DNA of 64,000 nucleotides from Psilocybe cubensis (lineage: Eukaryota). Of this stretch, positions 1 to 56,561 are shown piece after piece (position 1 is the first letter of the stretch; each line of letters begins with the position of its first letter). The translations under genes were made by a program, and so were the position numbers. The stretch is taken from positions 124,001 to 188,000 of the forward strand of contig CM039007.1 of NCBI GenBank assembly GCA_017499595.2, given 5' to 3'. The notes beneath the pieces are model-generated. The model did no database searches. It saw nothing but the letters and a program-made list of their open reading frames with translations, and was not told the origin of the DNA.

Positions 1-834
1 TGGGTTTCCCCGTGGGCGGTGAAAACGCGGAGCCGTGCTTTCCCGTCAACGCGGATCCGTGCTTCCCCGAGGTGGGGACGGATGTCCGTTCAGCCGCCTT
101 TCCCTTGCCCTTGGGATTGTTTTCTTGATTTCTTGGAGGCCCAGAGGTGGATGAACTTGCGCCCTCCTTAGCTTCTTTCCTCTGATTGTTTAGCCGGAGT
201 ACCTCTTGTTGGTATTCAGGCAGAACCACCTGGTGGGAAGGACGCAAATCAGATATAATCCACAGCAATAAAAAAACATACCTTGTTCCAAAATTCTCTT
301 GCTTGCGATTCAACGGTAACAAAGGCAACTTGCCACTCATCGCCTTCAGCAAATCCGTCCCTCCACCAATATCCCCAGCTCTTGGTCTGATTTAAAATTT
401 CATCATCTTCCCATGCTGACCAGCTTTGATTTAGAGATTCAAATAGAACAGCTCGATGGTGGGGAGTTCGGTTCAAAACGGCATGTACGCTCTGATTGAG
501 AATTTCTGATATAAAAAATGGAATATCGACTTGGAATCCATTGACATAGCAGTATCCGAGTACTCTCAGCAGTATAGCCTATCGAGCAGTTCTCAATGCA
601 AGATATAATAGTTCAAAATTACTGTCTTACCACCTCTAGGTCAAGCAAATACATCCATTTTTGGCGACGCACGGAGGAAACAGAGTCTCCGTTTGCAATG
701 AACAAACGGTATCCGGCACGGATCCGTGCACCACAAATATGGACATGAACTTTGGCCAGAGCACGTCGCTCATCATAGGTAAGGAGATGATGTTCGTCCT
801 CGACAGGAGGTTTACAAAGCCGCGGTAAGTGCAT
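1..834 (-). CDS. Hypothetical protein, probable KDZ-element accessory gene (3' end beyond window start)
   Basis: ORF pieces 619-903 and 249-476 join in frame through two 52-nt GT-AG introns (579-630, 230-281): MHLPRLCKPP...LLDLEV|AILLRVLGYC...REFWNK|VVLPEYQQEV... The frame stays open to position 1. Start codon is uncertain. Confidence 0.65.
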
Positions 835-878
835 GAATTCAACAAGATGAGATACAACAAGAATGTTCAAAGAACTGG

Positions 879-3800
879 TTAATCTGTAATTATAAATCTC
901 CACACGGACGGATACTCCGGGTTAATTTGACGGAAGACCTTATCCGCGGCCCGCCCCAGATCATTCCACATGGCAATCTGCTTTTGAGCATTTGCCCTGT
1001 GACCAACTAACCTGTCAGGAACAAAATCATGCCGTGCACGCCATGTCTTTGCCATATACACATAAAATCTGACAGTCCATTCCATTTCCTTTTTTGTCAA
1101 GGCCAGCTCCTCTTGCCATCTATTCCTCTGAGCTCGCGCGCGGAGCCAGTTTAGCCTAAAGACTAAGAAGCCCTTGAGAAAAAAATTAGAAATACAAATA
1201 GCAGTACTCACACTCATTAACGTATAATTGATTATCATTGTCCAGGCCCTGACGGGATCTCCAAATCCAACTTAGACGGTCCGAGCTTCCTCCGCGAATG
1301 TTCGGATCCGACACGGCATTACTATGCTTGCAATCATGGACTTGCAGAATGGGATATTGTTTCCGAATATTATCCTCGTCTCGCACGCCAGCAGATAAAT
1401 AGATCATCTTCTGACGGTTTGTGTTGTAGAGTCGCCGGTGCAATTTCCAGGAAGCATTCAAAAGCTTGACGCCATCCCAAGCACGAGTCCCCATATAGAC
1501 GGAGTCGGCGGTCCGAACCTGATATTTATACTGCCAAGAAAGCTGGATCAAGGCTGACCGGACCGCTTCCAGACAGTCCTCTGCGTGGCCATGTCTTATT
1601 TGAAGTTCAAGTTTGCGAAGCCCTTTTAAAATGAGGTTTGTTCCCGCGTCAAGGCCGTCAAAGAAATCTTGTTTGACGGCGGAGGGAAACGGAAGCGGCT
1701 GTCGTTCCGGATCCGCGCGGGTAATGTTGACATTTCCAAGATCAGGATCGTTGTTGTCACTGACTTCATAGTCAAGTATGGGAGCGATGTCCCCTTGAAT
1801 ATCCTCCAAGACATCTTCGCCCATGAAGGTCATAGCGGATCGACAGAAGGCTTCAACGCGGGTCCGCATGGAGCGACGTTTATTGACCAAGTCAAGTTTC
1901 TGCGCGGTGGAAGGATGCTTTCCGAGCTTTCTGACATGGTCCCTGAGCTCCAATCTAAAAACATGTTAAATTCTGTAGGATGCAATTGAAATAATCGTAC
2001 TGCGCTTGCTCCAGTTTTAAGCCGGATGATATCCATGCTGCCTTTCCAGTAGCACCATTAGATGTAAGTTCCATATTTGAAAGATGCAATTCAATTTCTT
2101 GGCGTCCAGCAGCCGTTTTCACTTTGCTTGCCATTACCTTGCCAACAGCGTCGGCCACACCTTGTTCTCGGTCCGCTTCTGCTTTTGAAATTTCATCTTC
2201 CCAAGTGTTGATGAGCCCGGAATCTTGTTGATCCGTGATACCCCTATAAAATCGGTCTGTGATTCCGGACTGTTCCCGTGCCCGTTTGAACTTTGCAGCA
2301 ATTGTTGCAGCCATATTAATGGTCTTCTTCCAGTTGGAATCCCCCATGTGGTCGTCCAAAACCTCTGCTCGATGGGCAGTGGTAGCGGAACGTGTACTCC
2401 GGGATGTGTCATTTAACACGGACCACAACGGCTCCAGGATTTCTCCGTCAATGATTCCCACACCCGGGACATAGGTGGATGCGTAGTTGTAAAGACATTC
2501 CGTCTTGTGCCCGTGGACGTGAAATAAACCAATTGCAAAAATCATTTTAACAGAAGGTGGCCAATGCATTTTTGTGGACTCTGAGAGACGCCTTGCCAAG
2601 TTAACGCAATATTGACAGTTTATATCGTAGATTTCCAAATGTTTTGTGATTCCCTGTGTGTTGGTAGTTTCCCTGGCCTGAGTCAAAGACCAATCCATGT
2701 GCATCTGCTTTTCACCTTTGTCAAAATCGACAACGCTGGATGGACAGAAGCATCCGTGCCTAGCGCAAGCGTGTGCCCCAATTCCACGTACTCTCTTACC
2801 CGGGCTGACTCTGTTTTCAGCTTTCTGGGCGTGGTAGTTATGACATGTTTGTTCCTGATATTTTTTGACACGGAAAGTAAGCATCCGCCGTAGAAGATTT
2901 TGACACGGAGCGTAAGCATCCGCCGTGAAAGATAAATCATGGTAGATAACGCACCCGTTTATAACGTGGAGCAAGAGAAATTGCTTCCTTAATGTGCTCC
3001 TTGTAAGGGCCCGGAGCAGTCATGTATCCTTCTCCAACGCTCAACCAAACATCGTCTCCCTCGTTTTTCTGATTGAGGTGATCTGCTTTGAAATTACCAT
3101 CTGCAACATAACTACGTATGTACAGATTGCTACTTGCTGTTAATTGCAGTCACCCTTGAAGAATAACTAAAACTTGCCTATCAGCATCATCAATCCAGGT
3201 ATCAGGTAGGTTTATTCCAGGCTGTGGACAGGCGGGGCAGAATAAGGCCAACTTCCCTCTCCTATCTTCAACTTCGGGATGATCCTCGGTCCGCGTCATT
3301 TGTGGTACAGGCGGACCATCTAATCCGCCGTGTCCCAGAGACGGGTCCGTTGACATTCCGACTTCTTGAGACGGACTATCAGATCCGCCGTCAATTGGAT
3401 CAGATACATTAATACCCATCCTCTCTGGTGATGAATCATGGCAATGACGATAGTAAGGGACCACCGCTTCTCTTGTATGCCCTTCTCCGTATTGTCGTCT
3501 CAGGACAAGGTCCCTGTATTCTCTACTAAGCCTTCTCAATTCACGATAGCGGTTCAGCACCTTTTTTGGAAACGCTGGCGAAGTCAGTCTTCGCAACTTT
3601 TGGTAATACTGATAAGCCGACGTTTTGCACTCGAGGTTGTCCATCCGAAAGTCCTCAAGGACCTCAACTGTGAACACAGTTTGAACGTTTTCAAAGCTGG
3701 CTGCAAATAATCCCATCTCCAGATACTGTAAATCGATAGACGGAAGGCGGACGGACCGGCATGTGCATGTTCGCACGGGCAGATAATGGACTCCGGAGGT

Positions 3801-4762
3801 GTGCACAATTGCCTTGAAAGGAATTCCATTGTTGTCTGCTGCCTTTGGACGAGGTTGGTCCAGATAGGTTGTATCGACTTCCTCGAATAGATCATCGTCT
3901 TCATCGTCTCCATCGTCCAGCTCAACCAAATGGGGTACCTCCGGGTCCGCCAGAAGCTGAGCCGTAAAGGATTCTTGGTCATTGCTCGCAGGAAGCGGAT
4001 CCAGGTCCAATCCGTGTTCATCTTCAAAGACGGGCGAATTGTTTCCGCCGTGCCCATGACTCCCGGATGAATTGTTTCCGCCGTCCCATCCTAGGTGGCT
4101 CGGATCCGTGGGATAAGGACAACGTTTCCCATTATGACCCAAATACAACTTGACACCCACTTCCCACAGAGCTCCCGGACGGAAATATAGACCCGTCCAC
4201 TTCTCAACGCGGTGGAAAGGTGTAAATTGATGGTTTCTTCGCAGGCATTCAGAACACAAAATTCTAGAGCCAAAGCATTGGCAACATCTCCACACTCCAG
4301 ACATTCCTTGACATTGCTGACACTGTCCATTCAGATCCGGATCCGGGGCTTCTCCTCCAATCATTGTTCCAAGATACACCTCTCGTTTCGGGAGCCATTC
4401 CCTCAGGTAATCATTTTGAGACTGGATAGGTAAAGTCATCCTGATCATTCTACTGAAAACATGTTAAAACATACCTTTCCTCCCGTTCTGTCGTCATCTA
4501 GCTGTCTCAGGTTATCAAGTACCTGCTGATCAGTTAGATCTCCCGGATAATGAGGTATTTCTTCTTCCAGAATGTTGTGTTCATGGTTTTGGAAAGAGTA
4601 AGTCGTTGTTTGAGGGAGGTTTGTTGATGATGATTCTGCAGGAAGTTTGTGGATCCTCGGCCGCCCTCTCTTTCGTTTCTTGGCCCCACTAGACCAGGAG
4701 GCCTCCCGAACATTGGGAAACTCCTCATCCGATCCCCTATCAGGTACTTTCTTGAAGCCCAT
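879..4762 (-). CDS. CxC2-domain KDZ (Kyakuja-Dileera-Zisupton) transposase, ~1195 aa
   Basis: Six exons (4762-4475, 4421-3178, 3129-2955, 2854-2001, 1954-1212, 1162-879) sum to 3588 nt in frame; intron 3130-3177 is GC-AG. Motifs: Cys/His knuckle CQQC..WRCCQC..CSEC..H..PFHRVEKW; CxC2-type HTSGVH..CTC..GLFAAS..VFT; LALFCPACPQPGINLP; catalytic-region motifs ADGNFK, CARHGCF, KGEKQ, YDINCQY, FHVHGH, DGEILEPLW; C-terminal WLRARAQRNRWQEE. Confidence 0.93.
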
Positions 4763-5641
4763 GGATGTTGGAAACAAAGAGTCTGACAGCCTGTGAGCGC
4801 AGATCTAAATGTAGTATAACATGTTTATTTCTGTAGATAAATTTCCCTCAATTATGCCGTTTTAAAGAGGAGAAAAATAGCTTTCATATGACTTATCTTG
4901 CAGCATATTTGGATGAGTGAGTGAAATGTTATGAACAAAACTTAATCCAGAGATGCACAAAATGGACGTGATCCCATCATAAATGTACAATATGATGCAG
5001 AACGACCCTTTCAGAACCACACTTTGGAGTGTTTTTGAAATATCTTTTCACTGGCTGGCCCCTCATTCCTCCGGCGTATATCATATGAAAGATATTTTTA
5101 ATAGCTACCGAATGACATTTTTTGTAGAATGTGAATCCTCGTATTTAAGGAGATATTCTCAATATACTAGAAAATGTGTCAAAATGAGCTCACTGGGATC
5201 ATTATATTTTTTGAAAAAAATTATGCATTTGAATACCTCTCATGGTCTCTGAGATGACTGCCGTTTTGGGTTTCACAAGTTTTGGGTGAGAAGACGTGAA
5301 TTTGCATTTTGTGTTTCTGTATCTTTACAGCCATCTGACAAGAATTTAAAACCTTGTAAAATTATCTTTATATAAAGCGCTAAATGTTTACAAAATTCCA
5401 TGTTTATTGATTGAATGCAGAGGGAACTATTGCAAAATCATGAGGTCAATGTATGTGACAGCGACCAGCATGCTTTGATCATCGTGGCCGACGATGAAGC
5501 GGGATTACCTGATTGGGAAAAATATGACATCACATCATTTATTTAGTATGATCGGAAGCTTATTTTATCTCCGTATGACGTGAGATTTGACCAGATCACA
5601 CAGATACTCATCGATAAGCTACTTGTTACATCACTGCAATT

Positions 5642-7952
5642 ATGCCCACCAATGCATCCCCCGACGCGGATCCGCTTCCTTCTACCGCAAATGCCACAAC
5701 CCACAACGGACCCAGAAACGGACAGACGGCGGAGGGTGACTTTCCGCCGGAAGAATCAAATATTTGGACAACAAAGGAAATGCGCGTGTTGAAAAAGCAT
5801 GTACAGCCCTACAAAGATACATCAAAGTCATCCAAAGCAGACTACATACAGAACACTGTCATACCTGAGCTGCAAGCTACATGGGATCACAGATACTCTA
5901 GACGTGCTAGGAAGGAAGATAAGCAACTACACAAAGAATGGAAGGTGAAGAAGCATGTGAGCTCGTTGTTTCTTTGAAAATTTTGTTACACACATAAACC
6001 ATCACAATAGCGAATATTTAATTGGTTTAGAAACCATGCGTCAAATCGAATTGGTGTAAAATTGGAAGGATTGAACTCCCGTATAACCTTTCAGACGGTA
6101 TTCCGTGAGGAGAAGTCGGCAGAGATTGACTCCGAGGTTGCGCTTCTATCAGGGAATGCTGCTCGTGGAAGTAAAGATTGGATGAAGTTTTATCAACAAG
6201 GACGTAAGCAGGTTGAGGCCAGATTGACTCAGGAGGAGCGGGACAGGTTCATGGAGATCCTCGAGGAATGGAATAAGAAAGGTGTTTCAAAATCAATGAA
6301 GGCAAAGTGAGTCGGTGGAACTTGTTTCCGCCGTCAATCTGACATCTGCAGGACTGCTGCCAGGCAAGGCAGAAAAATACTTCGACAAATGGAGAAACTT
6401 AAGTGGCAGAGAATGGGTATGAGGTCCATTACCTTTGAGGGGCATTATGATATTGAGGGTAAAATCGAATACTCAATGTAAGTGTTAAACACGGCATGAA
6501 CAAGTTCCGCCGTGAATGCTTACGGCGGAAACTTTATCCGCCGTAAACACCCTACGGCGGATAAAGTTTCCGCCGTAAGCATTCGCGGCGGAATAATTTG
6601 GCCCGTATTAATGTTGACTGATGGGCATTGAAGGACCCAGACAAGCGATCTAGCACTCGACGATGTCAGAATTCCTTCCTTTGGGCAACTCTTTCCATCC
6701 GAGTTGGCCGCTTTTCGCAGAGCGTTTGTTCAATACCTCGTCCACATTTCAGAAATAGAGAAGGGTGTGGCCAATCCAGCACTGCCAGATGCATCGTTTC
6801 ATGAAAAATCCCTCAAGTTTAGCAGCAATGGATTTCCAATAGTACCTAGTCCTATCTATGGCTCAACTGGGAGAGAAGTCGCTTATGCACAAAAGTCAAT
6901 TATTAGAATTTACATGAACAAGGTTTATGGTGTGTAATTTGTCTATGTCCTCAACAAACTTGCTAACTATGTATACAGCTTTAGCCAAGGACAGGCCTGG
7001 TTCAAGTGTTCCTTGGGATGCTCTTGAAAGGCGTTCTGCAGAAATGATTGATCCAGAGTATTGGCCAAGTTCAATCCCCGTGACGGATCCGAGCCGGCTC
7101 CGCCTGGAGTCAACCTCTGCAATTCTCAAGCTATGGAGGGACCGTCAAGCCCAAGGAGACATCCCCTTTAAATTTTCAAAGGTTTTTGGAAATGGCTATG
7201 ATATTATGGAACCTCTCTATCCGTCCAACTTGTTTGACGGCCTAGAAGCCCACCCGATACCTCCACCTCCTGCAGCAATAACCAAACGTCGCCTGAGGCA
7301 AAAAGCTATACGACTTCAAACCCAATCTTCAAGCGACTCTGAATCATCCAATCTGTCAGAGTTTGATAATGGACGGGGCAGTCCGGCATCCGCGATGCCA
7401 CGCACTACTGCCAGATTTGAAGTCACGCCAGAGACGGATGAGACTCCTACCGACGCACCTTCAAGATCTAGCGAGCCACCCTCTCTACCAAGTAGATCCA
7501 GCCCAACAATTGTCAATCCATCATCCAGCCCAACTCCAGAGGTTGAGGAGGCGCCTCCCAAGCCAGCTAGAAAGATTATGCCAAGAAAAAGAACAAAGCC
7601 ATATGTCGGAACGGCGGAAATGGACGGACCCGATGAAGAGAGTTCTGTACCGGCCCCAGTTAAGCCAAAACCAACTAGAAGGATTCAACCTAGGAAAAAA
7701 ACAAAGCCCTACTCAGATCCACTTGACACAGTGGAAGAAAGTGGAGTTCAGACAGGAACAACCCAAGACACGGATAATACACGGGCCGGCAGGGATGTGA
7801 CTTGTGATGCCTTTGTGGAGACAGTAACAAGTCCAGATACGGATGAAACACGGGCCCGCAGGAATGTGACTTCGGATGCCTTAGCACTTCAGGAAGCAAG
7901 TCTGCTTGTTGTAGCAGGTAAAAGACAAAGAAAAAAAACTTTGAAAGCCTAG
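5642..7952 (+). CDS. Hypothetical nuclear protein with homeodomain-like (RIFNWFRNH) and HMG-box-like segments, ~668 aa; probable KDZ accessory gene
   Basis: Five exons (5642-5956, 6011-6306, 6352-6477, 6634-6929, 6979-7952) total 2007 nt in frame with GT-AG introns. It has a WFxNH motif, a LTQEERDRFMEILEEWNK segment, a VPW...DPSRL...LWRDRQ..PFKF block, and an S/P/T-rich tail with basic NLS-like clusters. Confidence 0.8.
6505..6593. repeat. Nested inverted repeat (41-bp arms, 1 mismatch, 7-nt loop) inside intron 3 of the 5642-7952 gene
   Basis: 6505-6545 TTCCGCCGTGAATGCTTACGGCGGAAACTTTATCCGCCGTA is the reverse complement of 6553-6593 except for one base. Each arm is itself built of alternating TCCGCCGT/ACGGCGGA units. 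Confidence 0.95.
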
Positions 7953-8217
7953 CTGCTGAAGTAGATTCATAATACCTATTGAATGTGATGCTTTTCATTC
8001 TTATCTTGATGTTTCTCAAACATGTTTTCACACAAAATCAAAACAGAAAGCGGGTTCATTAAAAATCATCAAGTGCTACTTTTTGGGAGAGATATAAAAC
8101 AGATGAGCACATGAGAGTAAAAACTATATACAGTCCAAATATTAAAAATTGTACAATGCAATCTATGAGACAAGGCAAAAAAGGAGACCAAAAAAAGTTA
8201 CAAAGATTTGAAATACA

Positions 8218-10795
8218 CTACTTTTTTTGGGCCTTGGGTTTTTTGGGCGAGCGCGATGCTTCAGCCAGAGTCGTTTCCGCCTTTCGCTTCCGTCCAGCCC
8301 TTGTCTTTGTGGCTATGTTCGACGCGGGCAGCGTGGACGCCACGATCTCAACATCCTCCTCCACAATTTCAACCTCGTCGCTGTCCGAGGGATCAGACAA
8401 CTCCGATGAGTGTCCATTCCCGGATGGCCCAGCCTTGGAGGATGGCTTAGCCTTTGACAATGGCTTAGCCTTTGAGGATGGGCCGGCCTTTGACGATGAC
8501 GATGGCGCGGCCTTTGACGATGGTGCACCCTTTGACAACGGTGCGGCCTTTGACGTCGAACTTCGAGGACGTGGAGCTGGGAGAGGGGGTGGTGGAGACA
8601 GGGAAAGGACGGGTGGTACCGGTGGGAGCGAGGGTCGGCCAGCTGGGGGGGGCGAAGGCGCTTCTGGAGTCGAACCGGGCAAGAATAGCTCTGTTGGTGG
8701 CGCAGACACGGCAGGGAAGACGGGTGCGGGTGGAGGTGGGGGTGGGGAAGGGAGGACAGGTGCTGGCGGTGGTGGAGGAGGGGAAGGGAGAATGGGTGCT
8801 GCTGGAGGTGGAGGTGGGGAAGGGAGGGGTGCTGGCGGTGGTGGTGGGCTGGGGGATTGTGGCGCAGAGGTGGGTTCACGGGTCCGCGACGGACCCGATT
8901 CTTGTTCGACCTCCGTCTTGGAGGGTTCTGCTGCCTGTTTGGGGGCGGGATTCCTTTGTTCATCCTGCTCCAGCAAAACCCCGACCACGTACTGAACGTC
9001 CTGGATCGCCTGCTTGATGTTGTTGAACATCGTGACGGAAAGCGAAGTGTTTCCTGCCACTTGTTCTTTTGCCGTGGTCCACTCGGCCTTCAGCTCTTGG
9101 AAGCTGTCCTCGACGGTCTTCATCCTCTTCTCCACCGCCAAGTTTGTCTCGGCGAACGTTGCAATCCGTGCGTTTATCGCCGTCATGGACGCGGAAAGGC
9201 CATCCATCCGTTCCATCAGTCGGCCTTGTCGCTCAAACAGCTGCACAAGCAGCTCTCCCACATCCTCGGGGAACGACCCTTCCCCGGCCTTCCCCTTCGC
9301 CGGAACATCCTCTCCCTCCTCCAACTTCAACACCTCCCCGTAACTTCCCAGCGGCGTCGAGAGGTTGAATTGCCCGGCGACAGTGTTGCGTCCCGGGTAG
9401 AAACGTCCCGGGTAGAAACTGCAGTGAATCTTGCGAGACTTGCAAGACTCGCAAGATTGGTGCTTTACGGGGACGAGAGGCTCAGTGCCTGTCTCTCCCT
9501 TGACATGGCACGGCACCTTGAATTTGGTGCATCCCGTGCACCTTTCCACCATATCCACCATCCCCTCCGGCACCTGGCGCGCTTTCTCGGATCTCGACCG
9601 CGCCTTCCTGATGGGGGGGATATTGTCCTGGTTGGCGTCCTTCTTTGCAGACCGGGTGAGCATCTTCCGGGTGGGGGTGGTAGGCGGGGCCTCTTGGTCA
9701 TCGCCTTCGTCGTCCTCGTCGACGTCGGCGTCCGCGTCTTCGTCCGTGTGGCTTCCTATGATTGCTTTGCTCTTGAACTTCCCCTGCTTGGACTTCGCCA
9801 ATCTTTCCAGCTTCTCCCTGTACGCTGGGTGACCAGGCATGTTGGAGGCGGTGATGTGGGGAATGATTTCCCCCTTCCTTGTCCGTGGGCCCCTGTAGTC
9901 CGCTGGAGCCAACTGAATGGACTCCACGGGGTCCGCCGCTTTCCGTTTGCCCTTGTCTTTGTGGGCGTCTGTCACGGGTCCGTCTTCCACCGGGGGTTCG
10001 ACTGCCTTGCCCTTGCCCTTCTCGGCCCGTCTCTTCTCCGTCTCCTCCTTGTTCCTCTCCTCGTCTGTCTCCTGCTCCTGCTCCTGCTCCCTCTTCCTCC
10101 TCTCCTCCGCCTTCTGCCTCTCCTGCTCCCTGGTCTTCCTCTCCTGCTCCCTCTTCCTCCTCTCCTCCTTCCTCCTCTCCTCCACCTTCTGCTTCTCTTC
10201 CTCCCTCTTCCTCCTCTCCTCCTCCCTCTGCCTCTCCTCCTCCTCCTCCCTCTGCCTCTCCTCTTCCTCCTCCCTCTTCTTCTTCTCCTCCCTCTTCCTC
10301 CTCACCTCCCTCTTCCTCCTCTCCTCCACCCTCTGCCTCTCCTCCTCCTCTTGCTCCTCCTTCTCCCTCCTCTTCTCTTGCTCTTCCTCCTCCCTCCTCT
10401 TCCTCTGTGCCTCCTGGCCTTGCTGGTATGCCTTGAAATTTGCGACTTGATGATGCAAATTTGCCCAGTCGACCTCGAACCTTGCTACCTGCTTGCCGTC
10501 CTTGCCCTGGCTGGTCTTGTATGAATACACGACAGGGCTTGCGACATAATCCACGAGGCGGAAGTTGGCCGCGTCCCTGACGTGTTCTTGACACAGTGGA
10601 ACCTATTTGGATGAATTTTTTTTGTTCAGTAAGTCTTATGCTCAAGGGATATCGATTACTCACCAAGTCCCTGTAGAGCTGCTCCAACTGAGCGTTGAAC
10701 GCGCTTTCGCCATTGCGGTAGCACTCTGTAAAGGTTTTTTCCCAGTCAGCAAGGCGTTGGGCGAAGGTGGCGGTGGTGGAAGATGAAGAGGCCAT
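8218..10795 (-). CDS. Zn(2)-Cys(6)-like fungal zinc-cluster protein with E/R/K-rich helix, coiled coil and Pro-rich tail, ~838 aa
   Basis: Exon 10795-10664, a 61-nt GT-AG intron (10603-10663) and exon 10602-8218 join in frame. It contains CTGCTKFKVPC-x-CESCKSRKIHC (C-x2-C-x6-C...C-x2-C-x6-C), a long EEEERQR-type charged tract, a heptad-like segment LMERMDGLSASMTAINARIA and poly-Pro runs. Confidence 0.85.
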
Positions 10796-11099
10796 TGGGA
10801 AAGCGTTTTTTTTGGGGGGGAAGACGCGTTAATGGGTGAGGCACGGTAGAACGTGGGGTGGTGATCGTGGTTGGAGTTAGTCTAAAAAAAGTCTAAAAAA
10901 AAGCGGTCCCGCAAAACAAAACCATACACAAACATGTACAATCTGAGTCATGTGATTTCTTCACCAGATCCAGTTTGTGCAAAAGTTGCTAAGTTCGATA
11001 CACGGGTGAATCTATTTCCGTGTCATGGAGAATCCTCGGATAGTATTGTATTCCGTGAGATATATAAACAAGCCCACCCAGTTGCACTTTCTGGACTGT

Positions 11100-12529
11100 A
11101 TGTCCTCCTACAACTTTATTCCCACCTCTAGCAAAAATTCCCCCATTGACTACACCAGTCTCAACAATCTTACCAGGCTTCTCGAAAAACTGAAGGAACC
11201 TCCTCCCGTAAAACCTATAAAATGTAAGACTAATTGCATTAATTCAAGTAAATTTAAATTGATTTCTGAGCATCAGCAATGTCTTCAAATATTAGCAACT
11301 CTAAGGAAAGCAAACGCACAGCAAGGACGGATGACCTGGCTCCGCCGCCAATGCCAGTCATTCCAGATAACCTGGCTCCACCCCCTATGCCTGTTATTCC
11401 AGCTAACCTGGCTCCTCCCCCTATGCCAGTCATTTCATCTAACCTGGCTCCGCCCCCTATGCCAGTCATCCGGAAAGACCTGGCTCCGCCGCCAATGCCA
11501 GTAATTCCAGCTAACCTGGCTCCACCCCCTATGCCAGTAATTCCAGCTAACCTGGCTCCACCCCCTATGCCTGTTATTCCAGCTAACCTGGCTCCGCCCC
11601 CTATGCCAGTCATCCGGAAAGACCTGGCTCCGCCGCCAATGCCAGTAATTCCAGCTAGCCTGGCTCCGCCCCCTATGCCAGTCATCCGGAAAGACCTGGC
11701 TCCGCCGCCAATGCCAGTAATTCCAGCTAGCCTGGCTCCACCCCCTATGCCAGTCATTCCAGCTAACCTGGCTCCGCCGCCAATGCCAGTCATCCGGAAC
11801 GACACGGCTCCGCCGCCAATGCCTGTCATCCGGAACGACTTGGCTCCGCCGCCAATGCCAATCATTCCAAATAACCTAGCTCCTCCCCCTATGCCTGTCA
11901 TTCCACCTACCCTGGATCCTCCCCCTATGCCTGTTATTCCAGATACCCTGGATCCTCCACCTATGCCTGTCATCCGGGATGATGCGGCTCCGCCGTTGAT
12001 GGCAGCACATGTTTCATACACGTCTGTCGTCGACAAAATCATTATGGACTCTCGTCCAGCTATTTCCTCTGAGAGGAAGCAAGGTCGCTATTCTCCACCC
12101 CCTGAAGCATGCCACCTGCTCCTTCAAAACCCTTATTTTCGAACCTACGGCAGGTTTGATCCCATGGGCGGCTACCCCGGTTCGCCTCCCACCCAGTCTG
12201 ACATTGAGTTCGAGAATGTAACAGATCAGACGGCGTATTTTAACCCTCCTTTTCTATATGTATGTACTCAGATATTACCAAGCACTAGATACTGACAACT
12301 ATTTTAGAATTATACCGAGCAGCAGCTACGGGCAACATACGACCAAATAATTGACAGTTCCGTCGGCGACAGTAGTTATGACGGAAAGGTTACAACGTTC
12401 AAGAACCTCCGGCTGCATCAGCTGCAGTCAGAGATTCTGACTTATAATGCGCTGGAGGAAATTGACGCTGGGCTGGCAGGGATTGAATCGAGTTTGGAAA
12501 AGCATTTGTATACCGGTAGAGATGAATAA
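11100..12529 (+). CDS. Pro-rich tandem-repeat protein, ~442 aa; probable KDZ accessory gene
   Basis: Exons 11100-11223, 11277-12259 and 12308-12529 total 1329 nt in frame. TATATAAA lies at ~11061. It has 18 copies of xxLAPPPMPVI(P/R) followed by a unique C-terminal domain. Confidence 0.75.
11330..12000 (+). repeat. 36-bp coding minisatellite, ~18.5 copies
   Basis: Unit of type AACCTGGCTCCGCCGCCAATGCCAGTCATTCCAGCT repeated in frame; variants include AN/KD/AS/ND-LAPPPMPVIP/R. Confidence 0.97.
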
Positions 12530-12972
12530 ATTATTTTTGGAGCCCTTGTGCTCATTGACTTGCAATACCCCATAAATAACCCTCCCTCTCTGGGAAGACA
12601 CGGGTCAAATGGGTCCGTCTGACAGCACAACACGGGTCAAAACGGATCCGTCTGCTTGCAATACACGGGATGTAGATGGACCCGTCCGGTTCATTTGCGG
12701 CCCGTGTTTTTCCCGTGCAGCCCGACACGCGGATCCCGCATGCCACCCGGCGGCTCCATTTAGTGCTAAATGGCACGTCATGTACGCTATGATTTGCCAG
12801 GATAAATCACACGTACATCACGCTAATCTCCTAATTAGGTAGCGGGAGTAAATCCACCGTGTCTCACGTAATATCCTTATTATTAAATCTTAGGTAATGT
12901 ACGTTATAAATAAACTGTCTTATGTGGGACGCATGGGTGCTCGCTGACAAGTGTGATCAGTTATGCTTATAA

Positions 12973-13529
12973 TCAACAATGAAATTGTTGTGAAACCGGC
13001 TCACCTTTCCAACTATTCAGCCCCGATATCTCTTCCTCCGTGAAGGGATAGGAAGAGTGCCATGGATCGAGTGACTGTATCTCTTCTTCAGTCGTGGGAT
13101 GGAATAAGGTGGCATCAGTGGACGATGCTGATAGTGGTGGATATGACGCTGAAATGGGTGTTCTATTGGACATATCTTGCTACTGTACGCAATTCAAAGA
13201 CTTACGATCAAATTTGGCAGTGGCGGAGCTTTCACCATCCAAACCTGATGACGACGAGGATACCGGTTTATAGGAGTCGGATGATACCGCCACCGTATTT
13301 GGATCACATTGGAATTGAGGCAGATATCCAAACCCGCTGTATTCCTGTCCCAGTAGTTGTTCCGAGAGTGATTCCGGTGCTACTATGGCATGAAGAGTCG
13401 ATCAACATCAAGCTTTTGTCCCTAAAATTGTCTGCAATGCTCACATTCTGCGTCAAACAGGGAATCAAAGGATCCTGGATGAAAAGTGTTCGAAGGGATA
13501 TCAAAGGATTCTTCTTGGTACTGGGCCAT
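12973..13529 (-). pseudogene. Small S/P-rich hypothetical gene with one in-frame TAG
   Basis: ATG at 13529 (MAQYQEESFDIP...), GT-AG intron 13380-13444, then an open frame to GTA CAG TAG CAA GAT ATG (stop at 13180-13182). The frame continues into ORF 12973-13173. Confidence 0.4.
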
Positions 13530-14967
13530 TGGGATATACACAAAGGAGGATGGTGCGATAGGAAGGAGAGAGAATAGTATGAGGGAAGGAACAGAATTTT
13601 TCCCTCAAAACATAGGAATCGAGTGGCGACACACACAAAAAAATCCCAGGCTCATTACCTAGTACCGAGTGTCGAGCTTCTGACTCACTATTTAGTCGTG
13701 TATCAGCGCTGCTGCTGTCAAAATCAACTTTTCTCCCACACATACACACAATGAGGCAATATACCTCCTCTTATTTTGCGCCACTCGGATTTGGGGCACC
13801 ACAATGGAACCTCATGGCGAGCAACATAGTCCTTCTTTTAACCTCGAGGCCGAGTGACCTGTCTGTTATCTATTGTGCTCTGACATTTCTTGCCAACAGA
13901 TTATGTGTACAACAGATAACATAAATGAAGTGTTATTACATCGTGAGTGTGTATCCTAGGTTTGTTGAGTCCCATCGATTACTATCACAAGTGCTCAGAC
14001 ACTATGCCTAAACAAGAAGAAAAAGATTTCTTCTCGGCAATGTTGTTCCATTGTTCTTCTCTCATTTGTGAAAAAGACCGGTGCTACCGATTGTCTCCTT
14101 GCCCACTCAAAGATACTAAAATCTTATTAGACAATGTGCTCTGTATCACTATGTCTGAGGAAAGAACAGGGTGTAGAAAGTGTACCACCAGACAGCTCCC
14201 CAGGCTAGGTCAGTCCGTCTTATCAGATTTCTCGGGTTGACACGGGATCAGGTGTCAGACGGGGCTTATAAGAACGTCATACAGGATGTTCGTTCAAGAG
14301 ACACACTTTTTTGCGTGCCAGTCAGCATGTAACAGCCGTGTCAACAGCTTCACAATTTCCTCGTATATTATTTAAACATAGATTGGATGCCGTCATTGTA
14401 TTCACGTATGTGCGTCTATCAGATATTCTGAACGAGGGCCTCTTCACGTAGAGTGCTCTCACACAACACCCTCTGTGCTATTAATATTACACATGACTCC
14501 GTTTGATCCGTCCTCCGCTATATGTTAGGCGTTGAGATGCCCCACGGAGGTCTTGTTGGTTGAAGCGTCTGTTTACATGAGTAAGTGCAAGACACATAGT
14601 CGAGTTGTCTGAACGTGTGCGCTGAACATGTGCCTGTGCAGGCGCAATACTTTAACTTTAACTAAATGCCTGTGCCGGCCGATTTACATAATTCAATTTT
14701 GGTTCTCAGCACGGGTTAATCCGATTCGGATTCTTTCGACAGGGGCAAATACATCGTTAGCCACGTCCTTCATATCCAGCAACGACACTCGACTCACTGG
14801 AACATTTGGATTGGGGCATCGGATTACATAGTTACCTTGACCCCTACCAATTGTGCTCATGCTTGTCATGCAGACCAACGACACTGAAGGAAGCTTAATG
14901 GTCGTGTCGCTGCCTATTTGCCTTTCCATGACACGTCGTGTTCACTTCATCCTTCGTCACACCGGGT

Positions 14968-15462
14968 TTAGGGGCAGGCGACAACAGTCATGGTTCTCCT
15001 TCTTGCGCTGAACAGTAACAGCAGCGCAGATGCGTCTGACCATAACCCACATCTCCGAGGACCATTCCGAGCAGGACACCATGGGAGTTTTGGAAAGTAA
15101 CGGTGCCAGTAGTAGCCACTGTACCGCAGATATCCTGGATCCAAGGATTTTTGCCCAAGGCACTGACATCTGTTTAAGGGATAGACGCACTTCTTCGGGT
15201 GACGTGGCAAGAGAGGATGAGGACGCCCAGAATAATGAAGTATCTTCGTAAATTTTGCTGTGATTTTACAGTTATAAGCGCCCGTTTGTCATGCAGCGCG
15301 TCAGCTAGGGAAGGGTGCTGTGCTGTGCCTGTGAACGTACTCTTTAATGAAAAGCTTTAGGAACAGCCGGTAAACATCTCGCACCAGTGACGCACATCTT
15401 CCGTGATATCAATTTATACCATTTCCGACCCTTCCTGTCGACTTCACTCCTCTCCTCCTTGT
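14968..15462 (+). pseudogene. Degenerate duplicate of the last exon and 3' flank of the 19244-20664 membrane-protein gene
   Basis: Colinear with 20349-20863 through shared blocks AGCAGCGCAGATGC, CCATAACCCACATCTCCGA, ATATCCTGGATCCAA, GACGTGGCAAG, GTCAGCTAGGGAA, AAACATCTCGCACCAGTG and CCCTTCCTGTCGA. It has indels and no upstream exons. Confidence 0.85.
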
Positions 15463-51256: not shown

Positions 51257-53721
51257 TCATATAATGGAATAGTGCCTGCAGCATCGTATGACTACTATAG
51301 TAGCAAATGAACCCACAATACCACATAGCGTATGAATCAAGGCAATGAGGGAAGCCTGTTTAAAGTATGCAAATGCAGGCGCTGATTTCTGGAGTTCAAG
51401 CTCAAAATCATCCGCAAATTTGGACAAGTATCCCAAGAACAGTACTATCGAGAGTCTGACATGAGCAATATGGAAAGAAATTAAATGCGGTGGTAGTTCA
51501 AAATTAACTCGTCGACTCACATCAGCCATACGTGAACAACCTCACTCTCCTCATTCGACTCATTTGCTGTACCGGGTGCGATAGTAATGAATGGTTCATC
51601 TTCAAGAAAGCGTAATACGACATGAAAAACTATTTCGAGGAGTAGGTTCCATCCCCAGAAAAGGAATACAAACACCCACAAGAACAGATTTTCTAATGTG
51701 CCGCTTTCTCCGTTCTTTGAACCTGCATCAGCAAAAGTGACCAGACCCCCAAATGCCTTGGGAGCCTTATAAGGCATGCCAATGTTTTACGTGACACAGT
51801 AATGTCACACAAAACATTTGGGCAACATTTGGGAACACTCAAATCATTTGGTGGTCATTTGGAGGCCCCACAAACATTTTTGAAGCACAAAACAAGCACC
51901 AAATAATTTCTAGTAACTACAATTTACAAAAAAAAATTTGTACACTGTGCAACCTTGAAGGAATCATTTAACAAAATTAAAAGAGGTCACAAAACATTTG
52001 GTTTTACACTTCGGTTATGAGAAATGTTTACAGGACTTTCAAATGCTGATGAAATAATTCATCCACACCAAAATTTACTGGATATACAGCCACATTAGTT
52101 CTAATTAGAATTCTGTACAGTTGGTCACCCGGTCTGTACAATTTCTCGACTGTCAACGAAGTCACAATGCGATCAGCGTGAATCGGAGTGAATCGGAGAT
52201 CAAATATTTGTTTGTTTGTGCATAATAATCTCTTTCAACCCCCGTTTCTTTCTTTCCACATACTCTCATGTTCACTACTCCGGCGACGCTTGGTGGGACT
52301 TGGGCTTGGACTTTTCAACTTTAAGTCTTTGTATATCATAGCTGAATCTAACTCACAGGTAATTCTGCCACTTCCTTTCTGATTAGATTATCCTCAACTG
52401 ACCATGTATCTGCCTTTCCATAGACCGTTCTCCTTCTGCCTTAGATCTACTGGATATCCGGCTTGGTATATAATCATTCACTAGTTCCCGAACTTTTAGG
52501 TGAGTATATGCGCACTTCTGCACACACATCTTGCTTACATCATGCAACCAAAGTAGCTCCTATAATTCATGGCTACCATCTATTGATGACATCGTCTCAG
52601 CATCATTTTGTTATTTAACCACTTTCTCGTTTCTCTGTACCTTTTGGAGTCATGTTGTAGTATAAGTTTTCTTAATGCAACAAGTTCTTTTTACTTGCTA
52701 TGATAATCTGAGGGATCCACTAAATAATGAACCATATGAACTGTGTGAAACATTTAAATACTGGCAAATGTTTGCCAAATGTTTTTGGGACTTCCAAATG
52801 TTGCCTAAATGTTACGGACACTCTCAAATTTTAACCAAATGATTTGGCTATATTTAATACTACCTAAAACATTTGCTTTAAATAAACAATTCGAAGCCTT
52901 TCAGTCTTTGGAGTCTCTCGTTACGAACCGCACAATGCCTTTCGGGCATTGGGGCCTTTGGACGCCTCCAAATGCCTTGTCAAGGCATTTGGGGATCCGG
53001 GCACTTTTGCTGATGTGTGTGAACTTCGAAAGTGAAAACATTGCCAATGCACGGTCAGGCTATTGTGGATGGGTATCCTACGGGGCATCTTACTTACCTA
53101 TCATTATCACTATTGAAATAAGAAATAGAACAAATGTAAATGTATTGTTCCATGGTACGTCATATTCCACTGTGATGATAACGCACCTACTAGTATCCAT
53201 TGAATGCCACAAAGAAAAAACATTATTGATGATTTGAAAGCAAATTTACTGGTCCAGTGTATGATTCTCAATAAATGAGGATTGTGTTTTAGTAACCAAG
53301 GAAATGAATTTGGACATTCATTCTCATATGCAGATATCCAATAAGCTCTGCATGATGAATTAGATCGTCAGTGCATGGAATAAGGCGGAAAACTCCACTG
53401 TCAGCAATAGACGTACATAAGCGCCCAAGAAACTCCAAGAACACAGTCAAGGACAGTAGGCGCTATCGACCGTCCTTGCAGAACCAAGACAGTCTTGGAG
53501 ATTCCGATCCCCAAGATAAGTATCGTGTTTAAAACTCTCCACAGATTCACAATCACCGCTGGACTTGGTCGGTCTTCCGGAATTGAGCTCAAAGGTGAAG
53601 ACCTTAGTCCAATTAAGTACAACATAACATCCGTCTTGAAGAAAGACCTGAAAATATATCAGACGTACTCCAAGATAAGATCTGCGCGATCAATTTGGTC
53701 TTCAGGATCTAAATCGGACAT
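51257..53721 (-). CDS. Membrane protein paralog A1 (contains a 1,290-bp TE at an intron acceptor; may be disabled)
   Basis: MSDLDPEDQIDRADLILE|...VIVNLWRVLNTILILGIGISKT..APTVLDCVLGVSWALI|AYWISAYE..WLLKHNP; a 12-nt microexon at 53098-53109; the last exons lie at 51722-51257, beyond the TE. Confidence 0.65.
51726..53015. mobile_element. Non-autonomous TIR element, CMC/EnSpm-like, 1,290 bp (copy 1)
   Basis: Imperfect 35-bp TIRs beginning CATCAGCAAAAGTG, a 2-bp TSD (TG/TG), many subterminal CAAATG/CATTTG repeats, and no transposase ORF. Confidence 0.9.
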
Positions 53722-53790
53722 TCGAACTCGTGCTGTAGTGGGGTATCGGGGAAGTTGTTGGGAAGGTTGAATGACACTGACAGTATCTTT

Positions 53791-55080
53791 CATCAGCAAA
53801 AGTGACCAGACCCCCAAATGCCTTGGGAGCCTTATAAGGCATGCCAATGTTTTACGTGACACAGTAATGTCACACAAAACATTTGGGCAACATTTGGGAA
53901 CACTCAAATCATTTGGTGGTCATTTGGAGGCCCCACAAACATTTTTGAAGCACAAAACAAGCACCAAATAATTTCTAGTAACTACAATTTACAAAAAAAA
54001 ATTTGTACACTGTGCAACCTTGAAGGAATCATTTAACAAAATTAAAAGAGGTCACAAAACATTTGGTTTTACACTTCGGTTATGAGAAATGTTTACAGGA
54101 CTTTCAAATGCTGATGAAATAATTCATCCACACCAAAATTTACTGGATATACAGCCACATTAGTTCTAATTAGAATTCTGTACAGTTGGTCACCCGGTCT
54201 GTACAATTTCTCGACTGTCAACGAAGTCACAATGCGATCAGCGTGAATCGGAGTAAATCGGAGATCAAATATTTGTTTGTTTGTGCATAATAATCTCTTT
54301 CAACCCCCGTTTCTTTCTTTCCACATACTCTCATGTTCACTACTCCGGCGACGCTTGGTGGGACTTGGGCTTGGACTTTTCAACTTTAAGTCTTTGTATA
54401 TCATAGCTGAATCTAACTCACAGGTAATTCTGCCACTTTCTTTCTGATTAGATTATCCTCAACTGACCATGTATCTGCCTTTCCATAGACCGTTCTCCTT
54501 CTGCCTTAGATCTACTGGATATCCGGCTTGGTATATAATCATTCACTAGTTCCCGAACTTTTAGGTGAGTATATGCGCACTTCTGCACACACATCTTGCT
54601 TACATCATGCAACCAAAGTAGCTCCTATAATTCATGGCTACCATCTATTGATGACATCGTCTCAGCATCATTTTGTTATTTAACCACTTTCTCGTTTCTC
54701 TGTACCTTTTGGAGTCATGTTGTAGTATAAGTTTTCTTAATGCAACAAGTTCTTTTTACTTGCTATGATAATCTGAGGGATCCACTAAATAATGAACCAT
54801 GTGAACTGTGTGAAACATTTAAATACTGGCAAATGTTTGCCAAATGTTTTTGGGACTTCCAAATGTTGCCTAAATGTTACGGACACTCTCAAATTTTAAC
54901 CAAATGATTTGGCTATATTTAATACTACCTAAAACATTTGCTTTAAATAAACAATTCGAAGCCTTTCAGTCTTTGGAGTCTCTCGTTACGAACCGCACAA
55001 TGCCTTTCGGGCATTGGGGCCTTTGGACGCCTCCAAATGCCTTGTCAAGGCATTTGGGGATCCGGGCACTTTTGCTGATG
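53791..55080. mobile_element. Non-autonomous TIR element, CMC/EnSpm-like, 1,290 bp (copy 2)
   Basis: Same orientation and nearly identical to copy 1 (three substitutions noticed), with a different 2-bp TSD (TT/TT). Confidence 0.9.
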
Positions 55081-55436
55081 TTATAGGAGGGCAAGTACTA
55101 AATTTAGAACATGCACATTCCGCATCGCCTTGATATGCTAAATAGTTCGATCATATATAGGCGACAGAGAGTAAGCATGCTGTGTTACATGTATATAGAA
55201 TGGAGTAAGATTCTGGCACCATAAAGGAAGCAGCACCACATGTGTAGGTGCCCCGCAATCCCCCGGTTGGGTACTTGTAATAGTGAGTCTCGCGTTCTCT
55301 CAGATTCCCACTTGAGATGGAACTCTACATGTACTCACTTTTTTGACCTTTTGATTCCTTTCAGGCTCAATTTTTTGATGTGGTTCGCACTAATAATCAC
55401 CTGGGCCTTGCGTAGTTGTGTCACTAATTGGTTACA

Positions 55437-56561
55437 CTAGTGGTAAAATAGGCAGAAAACTATGAGGGAGAACATGGAGTTAAGCGCAGAAAATGGATCA
55501 AGCCTTACAAAGTATCCAAACAAGACTAATATTAACTGTATGGCTGCGTAAAATATAGCATCTTTTAAAAAGGCCGATGCTACTGTCAATGTGCCTGGAT
55601 GGCCCATTTGCTCTAATACTTCATACCAGTTTACGTAGATTTCGCAGATGTAACCACAGCGGGTGTTGTATACAATTGATACAATTGTGGCTACACTATA
55701 TGAGAGTCAATTTGGGAAATTTCAACCGGCGACATTGAACTCACATTGGAAAAGTATACATGGCATTATAGTCCTCATCGTAGGTCCACAGACTAATATG
55801 ATTTAGAAAAATGGTTCCTAGCCATATTAGAAGCATTGACGGGATACTTAGTACTGTATTCGATGTACCGCCTTCATCAGAAGATGAAAACATCACTGCA
55901 GTGGCACGGAATGTCAATGCGTTGTTCAAGAGAATATTCATAAGCACAACACATACGTATCAATACAACTGTTGAAAAAGCGCGATTTTGTGTGCGTGAG
56001 TAGGGTATGTTGTTATTACCGTCGTACTTTTATGGCTCACCTAGCCATTGGATTGAATATACCACGAGCAATGCAAATACTTTTGACGTATTGACGACAA
56101 CAAACCATGCTGCGTTTGCTAGTCGCGGGTTATGTTTCAAAAGCCAGGAACACGACTCTGGAGATTCAGCCTCAAATGCAGAGACCCAATAAGAGCTAAG
56201 GAATATCGTCAAACTAGGACGTGATCACAAATTTTAACATTGTACATACACAATTGCCCAAATGACACCGAGAGCCCAGTCAAGAATGGTTGGTGCTATT
56301 GTCTCTCCTTGTAACGCAGCAACCGTTTTCCAAATACCCAGTGCAATGATAAGGAGAGTGTTGAATATCCTCCAGATGTTCACAGTGACCCCTCGTCTAG
56401 CTCTAGATCCATCTGTCATCAAACGGCTGATAATTCTTTGTTCAAGCCTGAGGAACCAGCGTCAAGTCAGTGCTGCATTAGCTACAGAGTACGCTTGATG
56501 TTACATACAGAAAGGGTCTTGAAATATCGACATCTCTCCTCTGCTCATCAAATTCAGACAT
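55437..56561 (-). CDS. Membrane protein paralog B1
   Basis: MSEFDEQRRDVDISRPFL|..GVTVNIWRIFNTLLIIALGIWKT..APTILDWALGVIWAI|SYWVSAFEAESPESCSWLLKHNP.. ending ..LIVFCLFYH*. Confidence 0.72.

Follow-up and report, generated by a model that had tools for sequence, protein, structure and literature searches.

A short word private to a Kyakuja-like KDZ transposon of Psilocybe cubensis provides candidate recognition sites for an element-encoded protein

INTRODUCTION

The KDZ elements of fungi are active DNA transposons of giant size. We know of no account of how they recognize their own DNA, and the Kyakuja types even lack inverted terminal repeats. The question takes a concrete form in a 64,000-nucleotide stretch of the Psilocybe cubensis genome (GenBank assembly GCA_017499595.2, contig CM039007.1, positions 124,001 to 188,000 of the forward strand), the whole of which we call the window. 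Its left part belongs to a KDZ transposon in which the 8-mer TCCGCCGT/ACGGCGGA recurs. A sequence-only reading of the window had listed 16 exact copies and none in the remaining 51 kb, and it had proposed that the element marks itself with CGG-containing sites that are read by a protein of its own, possibly a Gal4-type Zn2Cys6 protein encoded at 8218-10795.

Here we ask what this word is and what might read it. A short repeat that is private to one multi-copy Kyakuja-like KDZ transposon has TCCGCCGT as its invariant core. With middling confidence, we propose that the TCCGCCGT words are private recognition sites for a DNA-binding protein encoded by the element.

RESULTS

An exact word in the two core genes of the element

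An exact-match search of both strands of the 64,000 bases returned all 16 of the listed copies of TCCGCCGT, at 1676(-), 2884, 2919, 3324, 3384, 4044 and 4077 (all +), 5726(-), 6327(+), 6506(+), 6522(-), 6537(+), 6554(-), 6569(+), 7611(-) and 11989(+). The other ~51 kb of the window had no copy, in agreement with the earlier count. In 100 dinucleotide-preserving shuffles, the mean was 1.15 and the maximum 5, and none of the 100 reached 16. When sites less than 150 bp apart were merged, nine clusters remained, compared with six for the best CpG-containing 8-mer of any kind in 40 Markov-1 simulations. GC content does not explain the excess, because parts of the window beyond this region that are at least as GC-rich hold no TCCGCCGT. 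As a background, the other fungal KDZ loci, 478,359 bases in all, contained 21 copies, 12 of which were in a single family (L059/L060).

The enrichment concerns the exact word. Positions 1 to 8000 hold 15 exact copies and five one-mismatch copies, the latter against an expectation of 5.2 derived from the DNA outside; exact TCCGCCGT is strongly favored over its near-variants in an all-or-none manner. Between sister units, 11, 14, and 15 of 28 flanking positions differ while the core is unchanged, a comparison that is biased because the sites were picked by their exact core.

The copy at 11989 stands apart. It lies at the degenerate continuation of a 36-bp coding tandem repeat (11330-11973) and is best seen as a one-base chance variant, because the neighboring repeat unit carries the one-mismatch TCCGCCGC (seven times). 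The other 15 sites all fall within 1676-7618, the span of two conserved core genes (the transposase gene and a companion, gene 2). There is none at the right end of the element and, apart from the chance site, none in its cargo genes. The word had been described as element-wide; it is in fact confined to the core genes.

Placement and palindromic layout of the sites

Gene models were derived from the database proteins P0003 (transposase) and P0099 (gene 2) and from splice signals. They place eight sites in introns (2884 and 2919 in the transposase intron, 6327 in one gene-2 intron, and five in another) and seven in coding sequence. The coding sites use three frames: xAC-GGC-GGA, which gives [D/H]GG (four sites); TCC-GCC-GTC, which gives SAV (one site); and ACG-GCG-GAx, which gives TAE (two sites). 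The sites and their units are as follows.

1676..1683, - strand: 8-mer site in transposase coding sequence; TCC GCC GTC is the S-A-V of a conserved PFPSA motif; local identity to P0004 is 0.67
2863..2933, + strand: two 35-bp tandem units with one TCCGCCGT each (2884, 2919), in transposase intron 2855-2954
3308..3391, + strand: two imperfect palindromic units with sites 3324 and 3384, encoding DGG/HGG in hypervariable linker B of the transposase
4030..4084, + strand: two 33-bp units (GAATTGTT-TCCGCCGT) with sites 4044 and 4077, encoding DGGNNS/HGGNNS in hypervariable linker A
5726..5750, + strand: palindrome ACGGCGGA-N9-TCCGCCGG in gene-2 exon 1, disordered N-terminus
6312..6334, + strand: unit TCGGTGGA-N7-TCCGCCGT in gene-2 intron 6308-6351
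6491..6593, + strand: palindromic array of five exact sites and one one-mismatch site in gene-2 intron 6479-6633; 41-nt arms, 98% complementary
7611..7618, - strand: 8-mer site in gene-2 exon 5; ACG GCG GAA encodes T-A-E in the disordered tail

The two transposase linkers are poorly conserved: identity to P0004 is 0.30 in linker B and 0.14 in linker A, compared with 0.73 overall, and the linker A segment is missing from P0006. As the word occurs in three frames, in both orientations, in introns, and in unconserved linkers, no peptide motif accounts for it, and the use of three frames rules out a peptide-level explanation of the coding sites. The earlier statement that coding alone is insufficient to explain copies in introns of two genes and in coding linkers is thus borne out. 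Judged from this placement, TCCGCCGT operates at the nucleic-acid (DNA) level.

Most sites share a consensus layout, an imperfect palindrome with ACGGnGGA as the left half, an AT-rich spacer of N6-9, and TCCGCCGT as the right half, which is extended to GAAnTTGTT-TCCGCCGT in several copies. An inverted partner with at most three mismatches lies 5 to 9 bp upstream in 11 of the 15 sites; at 5726 it lies on the opposite side, and 1676, 2884, and 7611 have no partner. In a logo of the flanks, CGG stands at -14 to -12, with G at -12 in 12 of the 15 sites, and is followed by a spacer that is poor in G and has none at -6 to -4. Within 6491-6593 in gene-2 intron 3, perfect ACGGCGGA-N7-TCCGCCGT versions make up the inverted repeat with 41-nt arms. 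The palindromic layout is that expected of a dimeric binding site.

Palindromes in gene bodies could also act in RNA, where hairpins in the pre-mRNAs would govern the splicing or retention of introns in the core genes or give rise to small RNAs. The gene-2 intron 6479-6633 is predicted to fold into a perfect stem of 42 bp (-93.9 kcal/mol; z of -13.8), whereas the transposase intron is unstructured (z of -1.1). Retention of the latter (2855-2954) would truncate the transposase ahead of its catalytic domain, and the homologous intron recurrently hosts arrays in other families (see below). All 15 sites are in transcribed gene bodies, with none in the 878 bp between the two genes, but with nine clusters and an intergenic share of 13% of the core, such an absence would arise by chance about 3 times in 10. 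The sense-strand orientation is mixed (10 ACGGCGGA versus 5 UCCGCCGU), and a search of 1-13000 found no Rfam family. We consider an RNA-level role improbable.

The sites may also be a neutral by-product, with a short, hairpin-prone unit of single origin spread by slippage, unequal exchange, and gene conversion, so that the count records a history of duplication. Tandem pairs of 35, 33, and ~60 bp and the palindromic array make up 11 of the 15 sites, and the units at 4044, 4077, 6327, and 6506-6576 are alike over 17 to 24 bp. The number of units varies between copies of the element. About a quarter of public reads carry a third unit of 35 to 39 bp at 2874, with an exact TCCGCCGT and different flanks (read joint 2874>2861, with 25 inserted letters that include TCCGCCGT), and 63 bp of the 6491-6593 array are absent from some genomic copies (read joints 6504>6568 and 6522>6586, within 6504-6586). 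On the other hand, the nine clusters extend over 6 kb, both strands, and two genes, and one-mismatch derivatives are hardly seen while about half of the flank positions differ. We regard the neutral account as unlikely, though it deserves to be taken seriously, and we return to it with the data from other loci.

A second word and related CGG pairs

The element has a second private word, the palindrome CGGATCCG, whose positions are listed together with the right end of the element.

52, 719, 1303, 1708, 4101, 4338, 5667, 7084, and 12643, no strand: palindrome CGGATCCG; 9/9 copies inside the element
12598..12926, + strand: right subterminal region and right end, with 33-bp repeats that carry CACGGG and GGRTCCGTC/CGGATCCG words; 0 TCCGCCGT

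The nine copies of CGGATCCG compare with a shuffle mean of 0.64 and a maximum of 3. The wider class CGGRYCCG has 17 of 17 copies inside the element (shuffle mean, 1.83; maximum, 7), and GRTCCGT has 16 of 19, including those in the right subterminal repeats. Words that contain CGGA/TCCG are broadly overrepresented in the first 8 kb. Inverted CGG pairs at certain spacings are in excess over positions 1 to 8000: CGG-N2-CCG occurs 15 times (0.6 expected) and CGG-N12-CCG 16 times (1.1 expected), while CGGCGG occurs 18 times (2.0 expected). CGG-N2-CCG was also considered as a universal KDZ signature and rejected, as its ratio reached at least 3 in just 7 of 38 KDZ loci.

The two words differ in their relation to the right end. 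One CGGATCCG and the variant GGGTCCGT lie in the 33-bp tandem repeat at 12598-12669 that adjoins it, and the CGGATCCG/GGRTCCGT class does have subterminal copies. TCCGCCGT has no copy in 12000-12926, and the closest genuine site lies 5.3 kb away from this end. This distribution suggests two roles, in which the GGRTCCGT/CGGATCCG class would be the better candidate for end recognition and TCCGCCGT would have some internal role.

The host element, its ends, and its copies

These words are carried by a Kyakuja-like DNA transposon of the KDZ type that spans at least 12,926 bp, is cut by the left edge of the window, and has its right end (...TATGTG) at 12921-12926. Four genes are visible.

1..4763, - strand: KDZ transposase gene, running off the left window edge; introns ~4448-4470 and 2855-2954; tblastn of P0003 covers 2-4762
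5642..7952, + strand: companion gene 2, 668 amino acids, five exons, divergent from the transposase gene; model P0099
8218..10795, - strand: cargo gene 3, highly charged, low-complexity product with proline-rich repeats and a zinc-cluster-like Cys pattern; 0 TCCGCCGT
~11280..12530, + strand: cargo gene 4, 36-bp coding repeat with ~18 copies of a 12-residue PPPMPVIP-type repeat; proline-rich; holds 11989

The KDZ catalytic domain (PF18758) was found in the open reading frame 1955-3019(-) with an E value of 1.2e-37 and 130 bits (cut-off, 26.6) and in P0003 with an E value of 7.9e-41. The N-terminal CxC2 cluster (PF18803) was found in the open reading frame 3150-4463(-) with an E value of 1.5e-21 and 77 bits (cut-off, 27). 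The nearest relative of the transposase, P0004, is 81% identical, belongs to a sister family, and is a named Psilocybe cubensis protein. P0099 (gene 2) and P0250 (gene 3) are 100% identical over the compared parts and are likewise named proteins from Psilocybe cubensis. Genes 3 and 4 are lineage-restricted cargo genes. A joint 7522>12388 was present in one contig of another read run, and therefore both are missing from some genomic copies.

Copies and ends were assessed by placing public raw reads on positions 1 to 15000, with depth summed over both directions. The depth was ~390 to 660 over 1-12,500, except for one low-complexity bin at 224, and 964 in 12,501-13,000. In the flank, it was 118 in 13,001-13,500 and 84 in 14,501-15,000, with 281 and 192 in the two intermediate bins. 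Directly past 12926, 664 reads diverge into unlike sequences. From the fall in depth and the diverging reads, it follows that the element ends at 12926 and continues beyond the left window edge; it is a repeated, mobile unit with a defined right end. The expected single-copy depth is ~35 to 40 (genome of ~40 to 47 Mb; ~1.63 billion letters read), and we estimate the copy number at roughly 10 to 15.

The last 319 bp (12608-12926) have about twice the depth of the rest, and 287 reads mark a sharply defined alternative junction at 12608, with a consensus agreement of 0.99. Therefore, a second element type, either a second family or a deletion derivative, shares the right end. The ...TG terminus suggests a fit with the ends of Kyakuja elements, the left end of this element being outside the window. 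The accessible text of PMC12730594 gives Kyakuja elements 5'-CA..TG-3' termini, no terminal inverted repeats, and a 7-bp target duplication. The DNA to the right of the element (12927-15000) is itself repeated, with a depth of 84 to 281 against the single-copy estimate of ~35 to 40 and with many variant positions, and the element seems to have inserted into another repeat.

Private words in other KDZ loci

For comparison, metagenome contigs were scanned with a KDZ alignment, which gave 80 metagenomic KDZ loci that were 34 to 65% identical in the best protein segment. Many of them have an overrepresented CpG-containing 8-mer of their own that is spread along the contig.

L060: ACCGCCGC, 32 copies
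L069: ATCGGCAT, 24 copies
L079: CGGCACCG, 19 copies
L067: CCGATGCC, 18 copies
L064: CGGCCGAG, 18 copies
L066: AACTCCGA, 13 copies
L070: CCGGGTCG, 12 copies

With tandem copies collapsed, the top CpG 8-mer was above all 40 Markov-1 simulations in 19 of the 38 loci of at least 5 kb and at least twice the simulation maximum in 7 of the 38. The element of the window also passed this test (9 versus 6), and 0 of 4 control chunks of the window did. The words fall within the transposase gene span in L012, L067, L069, L070, L063, and L076. The counterpart of intron 2855-2954, which follows transposase residue ~562-572, repeatedly hosts repeat arrays, listed here by locus.

L012/L027: homologous-intron array, 856-912 bp, TTCGGTGCCCG-type repeats
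L022/L025/L040: homologous-intron array, 825-959 bp
L058: homologous-intron array, 674 bp
L067/68/69/72: homologous-intron array, 145-164 bp, the family's own word

In many other loci, the homologous intron is short and plain or missing. As to the expanded transposase introns (670-960 bp), the repeats of L012, L022, and L040 are absent elsewhere in the respective locus, while one L058 intron word recurs elsewhere.

One word could be followed through divergence. Between L067 and L068 (79.5% identical), 6 of 10 aligned CCGATGCC sites are kept, compared with 22% of all 8-mer windows. CCGATGCC occurs at 2.1 to 4.0 copies per kb in L067, L068, L069, and L072, whose alignable parts are 68 to 84% identical, and elsewhere at 30 copies in 443,148 bases. 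This persistence is the main argument that such words may be under selection. For TCCGCCGT the argument is indirect, because the copies of this family are near-identical. Both results speak against a neutral by-product: other words behave like TCCGCCGT in 19 of 38 KDZ loci and in none of the four controls, and one of them is kept across relatives that are 68 to 84% identical.

Comparison with other loci also bears on the idea that the words serve host or epigenetic factors, either as CpG-dense sites that recruit a host transcription factor or as key targets of methylation and demethylation. Each word has two CpGs, and many related KDZ loci carry a TET/JBP gene. By tblastn with the TET part of P0053, a TET/JBP-like segment was found near the transposase in 19 loci (L060, L059, L028, L003, L029, L042, L004, L046, L064, L079, L002, L034, L073, L031, L050, L066, L005, L040, and L016), and Pfam Tet_JBP was found in P0053 and P0082. 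Kojima proposed in 2025, in the accessible text of PMC12730594, that transposon TETs counteract silencing by methylation. However, two TET-bearing queries detected no TET/JBP gene in the visible 12.9 kb of our element (E value of at most 0.01), and the lack of copies in 51 kb of host DNA in the window is unexpected for the site of a general host factor. The words also differ between KDZ families, which fits readers encoded by the elements rather than by the host. We therefore think it improbable that host factors or methylation explain the words.

A further repeat lies at some distance in the window. Two tandem units of ~2,065 bp at 51812-55941 have eight copies of AAACATTT each (often as AAACATTTGG), which together are 16 of the 22 copies in the window; two further copies are at 56751 and 57188. 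The KDZ locus L031 contains an array with a 20-bp period and 40 copies of AAACATTT. The unit at 51812-55941 may be another repeat-marked element.

Candidate readers of the word

The conserved companion, gene 2, has homologues in 13 of the 80 loci by tblastn. They lie on the upstream side of the transposase in 11 of the 19 loci with at least 3 kb of sequence there, and 10 of these are divergent. An exhaustive HMMER search gave 280 representatives with an E value of at most 0.001, a large Basidiomycota family, and no Pfam family was found for gene 2. The predicted layout consists of homeodomain-like, HMG-box-like, and GTF2I-repeat-like modules followed by a disordered tail, all from marginal matches.

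A 104-member profile was compared with Protein Data Bank (PDB) sequences. It matched the HMBOX1 homeodomain with E values of 0.0022 and 0.0025, a match that takes in the WFxN recognition helix. It also matched four GTF2I repeats with E values of 0.004 to 0.067; a 40-member profile gave the same GTF2I matches. Pfam GTF2I was found in 8 of 40 members with an E value of at most 1 (the best, 0.013, falls short of the cut-off). HMG_box_2 was found in 4 of 40 members with an E value of at most 0.01, in all cases at P0099 residues ~145-199, and P0127 alone reached the cut-off (22.4 bits). An AlphaFold2 model from the 104-row alignment had a pLDDT above 90 over most of residues 40-445. In a VIA-align fold search against 48,161 chains, the top matches of this model were GTF2I domains (Z of 7.1 with a root mean square deviation of 3.6 and 89/90 aligned, then Z of 6.5). 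About 11 HMG boxes matched residues 113-237, mostly 123-196 (Z of 4.4 to 5.4), and the atypical homeodomain of HNF1 matched residues 39-123 (Z of 4.9). The list of a parallel Foldseek search includes nine GTF2I entries (TM score by target, 0.40 to 0.57).

Taking all of these marginal lines jointly, the gene-2 product is a credible three-module DNA-binding protein. From sequence and model, the most likely reader of TCCGCCGT would be this conserved protein, and the alternative would be the N-terminal CxC2 region of the transposase. The pattern TTGTT-N1-2-CCGCCG is found 14 times in L060, three times in the element, and once in L059; the other loci and the rest of the window have none. ATTGTT is the core of SOX-type HMG sites, and we treat the pattern as a lead, not as evidence.

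The reader first named for the words was the product of gene 3, as a Gal4-like Zn2Cys6 protein that binds CGG-type sites. Dimers of Zn2Cys6 proteins recognize pairs of CGG triplets, and the site of Ume6 contains CGGCGG. The excess of inverted CGG pairs at fixed spacings (N2 and N12, above) would suit such a reader, and gene 3 encodes a six-Cys pattern (C-X2-C-X6-C-X18-C-X2-C-X6-C) followed by a helical stretch. However, Pfam Zn_clus (PF00172) scores only 11.6 bits (cut-off, 21; E value, 0.31; 14/39 profile positions), with about half of the profile matched, and a PDB sequence search returned no zinc-cluster chain. By tblastn, none of the 80 KDZ loci has a gene-3 homologue, though many have words of their own; homologues were found in the same species only. 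Gene 3 is also located in the cargo part, which is absent from some copies. A gene-3 Zn2Cys6 protein as the reader is therefore very improbable.

DISCUSSION

The earlier idea that the element marks itself for a reader of its own retains its general part. The word is element-specific and acts at the DNA level, its layout is of the dimer type, and KDZ loci elsewhere have analogous words; the Zn2Cys6 reader is the part that proved weak. In the mechanism that we favor, a sequence-specific protein made by the element would recognize the TCCGCCGT and CGGATCCG/CGGRYCCG words. Its likeliest source would be gene 2, with its homeodomain-, HMG-box-, and GTF2I-repeat-like modules, and otherwise the CxC2 region. 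The sites would serve as an address for the copies of the element itself, and their role would be to control the two divergently transcribed core genes, to assemble a transposition complex, or both. Selection could place words only in unconstrained sequence, which would explain their location in introns and hypervariable linkers. Binding of the words by any protein, the identity of that protein, and what binding achieves are what we infer here.

Several observations weigh against this proposal. Much of the count is supplied by the 35-bp, 33-bp, and ~60-bp pairs and one palindromic array, and array length differs between genomic copies, as it does in neutral minisatellites. The intergenic promoter region (4764-5641) has no exact site. 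The right 319 bp, which are seemingly sufficient for carriage by the second element type, lack TCCGCCGT, and this argues against the word being required for end recognition. In 19 of the 38 KDZ loci, no word rises above the simulations, and the controls amount to just 51 kb from a single window. The bias noted above affects the contrast between the exact core and the diverged flanks. The genomic copies are too alike to gauge the conservation of TCCGCCGT itself; that none of the 40/1027 listed between-copy differences falls in a site proves nothing. With regard to the reader, the homeodomain fold match ties with unrelated helical bundles, Foldseek gave no match for gene 2 with an E value of at most 0.001, and every profile or fold match is marginal (E value of at least 0.002; Z of at most 7.1).

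A bolder extension, which we consider rather unlikely, is that the words are family-specific address codes, CpG-rich and scattered through introns, linkers, and end regions, with the conserved three-module companion as their reader. The companion would then steer the transposase exclusively to copies of its own family, and in relatives that carry TET it would do so for the demethylase as well. If so, co-resident KDZ families would tell self from non-self, each shielding only its own copies from silencing.

KDZ elements cause drug resistance mutations in Cryptococcus, according to the accessible text of PMC11343200. For one family, the present data supply two words that are candidates for recognition: TCCGCCGT, together with its palindromic partner, and CGGATCCG. 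They also indicate that private words are common in the KDZ superfamily and are kept through divergence, and that a conserved companion gene has a DNA-binding-like product. How a KDZ element is recognized in cis, and by which protein, thereby becomes a directly testable question. In addition, the presence of a GTF2I-like repeat in a protein of a fungal transposon may bear on the origin of that vertebrate domain.

Kyakuja/KDZ DNA transposons of Agaricomycetes were reportedly described by Iyer et al. in 2014. Our element resembles them in its KDZ domain with an N-terminal CxC cluster, in being a large, multi-gene, many-copy element, in its ...TG right end, and in that related loci often carry TET/JBP; it differs in that its visible part has no TET gene. 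The accessible text of the KDZ literature, including PMC12730594, PMC11343200, and 10.1101/2025.05.19.654958 (supplements aside), mentions neither internal family-specific words or intronic arrays nor a homeodomain/HMG/GTF2I-like companion gene.

Our candidate reader and its putative sites can also be set beside better-known DNA-binding modules. The gene-2 central domain resembles the GTF2I (TFII-I) repeat by profile, by Pfam (8/40; E value of at most 1), and by fold (Z of 7.1 and 6.5). Unlike GTF2I, it scores under the curated thresholds and is present as just one repeat, and the protein that contains it comes from a fungal transposon and adds homeodomain- and HMG-like modules. Gal4-type Zn2Cys6 sites are CGG-triplet pairs at fixed spacing, and inverted CGG/CCG pairs at preferred spacings are enriched in the element. 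In contrast to Gal4-type systems, no element protein is above the Zn_clus threshold, and the conserved companion has other DNA-binding-like folds.

The closest parallels come from other transposon superfamilies. En/Spm (CACTA) elements have 12-bp subterminal motifs that are bound by the element's TnpA. As in En/Spm, a short word occurs many times in both orientations (here, at 15 TCCGCCGT sites) and partly as inverted pairs, and the element encodes a second, noncatalytic protein that is here a candidate DNA-binding protein. The En/Spm motifs, however, lie within a few hundred base pairs of the ends, whereas TCCGCCGT is internal, in introns and coding linkers, and the superfamily is another. 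In Harbinger3_DR, according to the accessible text of PMC9710019, a Myb-like protein recognizes a 9-bp motif in the subterminal region and also interacts with the transposase. PIF/Harbinger elements share with ours a conserved companion gene beside the transposase gene (here with a putative DNA-binding product) and a short repeated word. In our element, the companion is homeodomain/HMG/GTF2I-like and not Myb/SANT, the word is internal, and the pairing of the two is putative. Compared with En/Spm and Harbinger, the novelty would thus lie in the KDZ superfamily, in the internal location of the word in introns and linkers, and in the type of companion protein.

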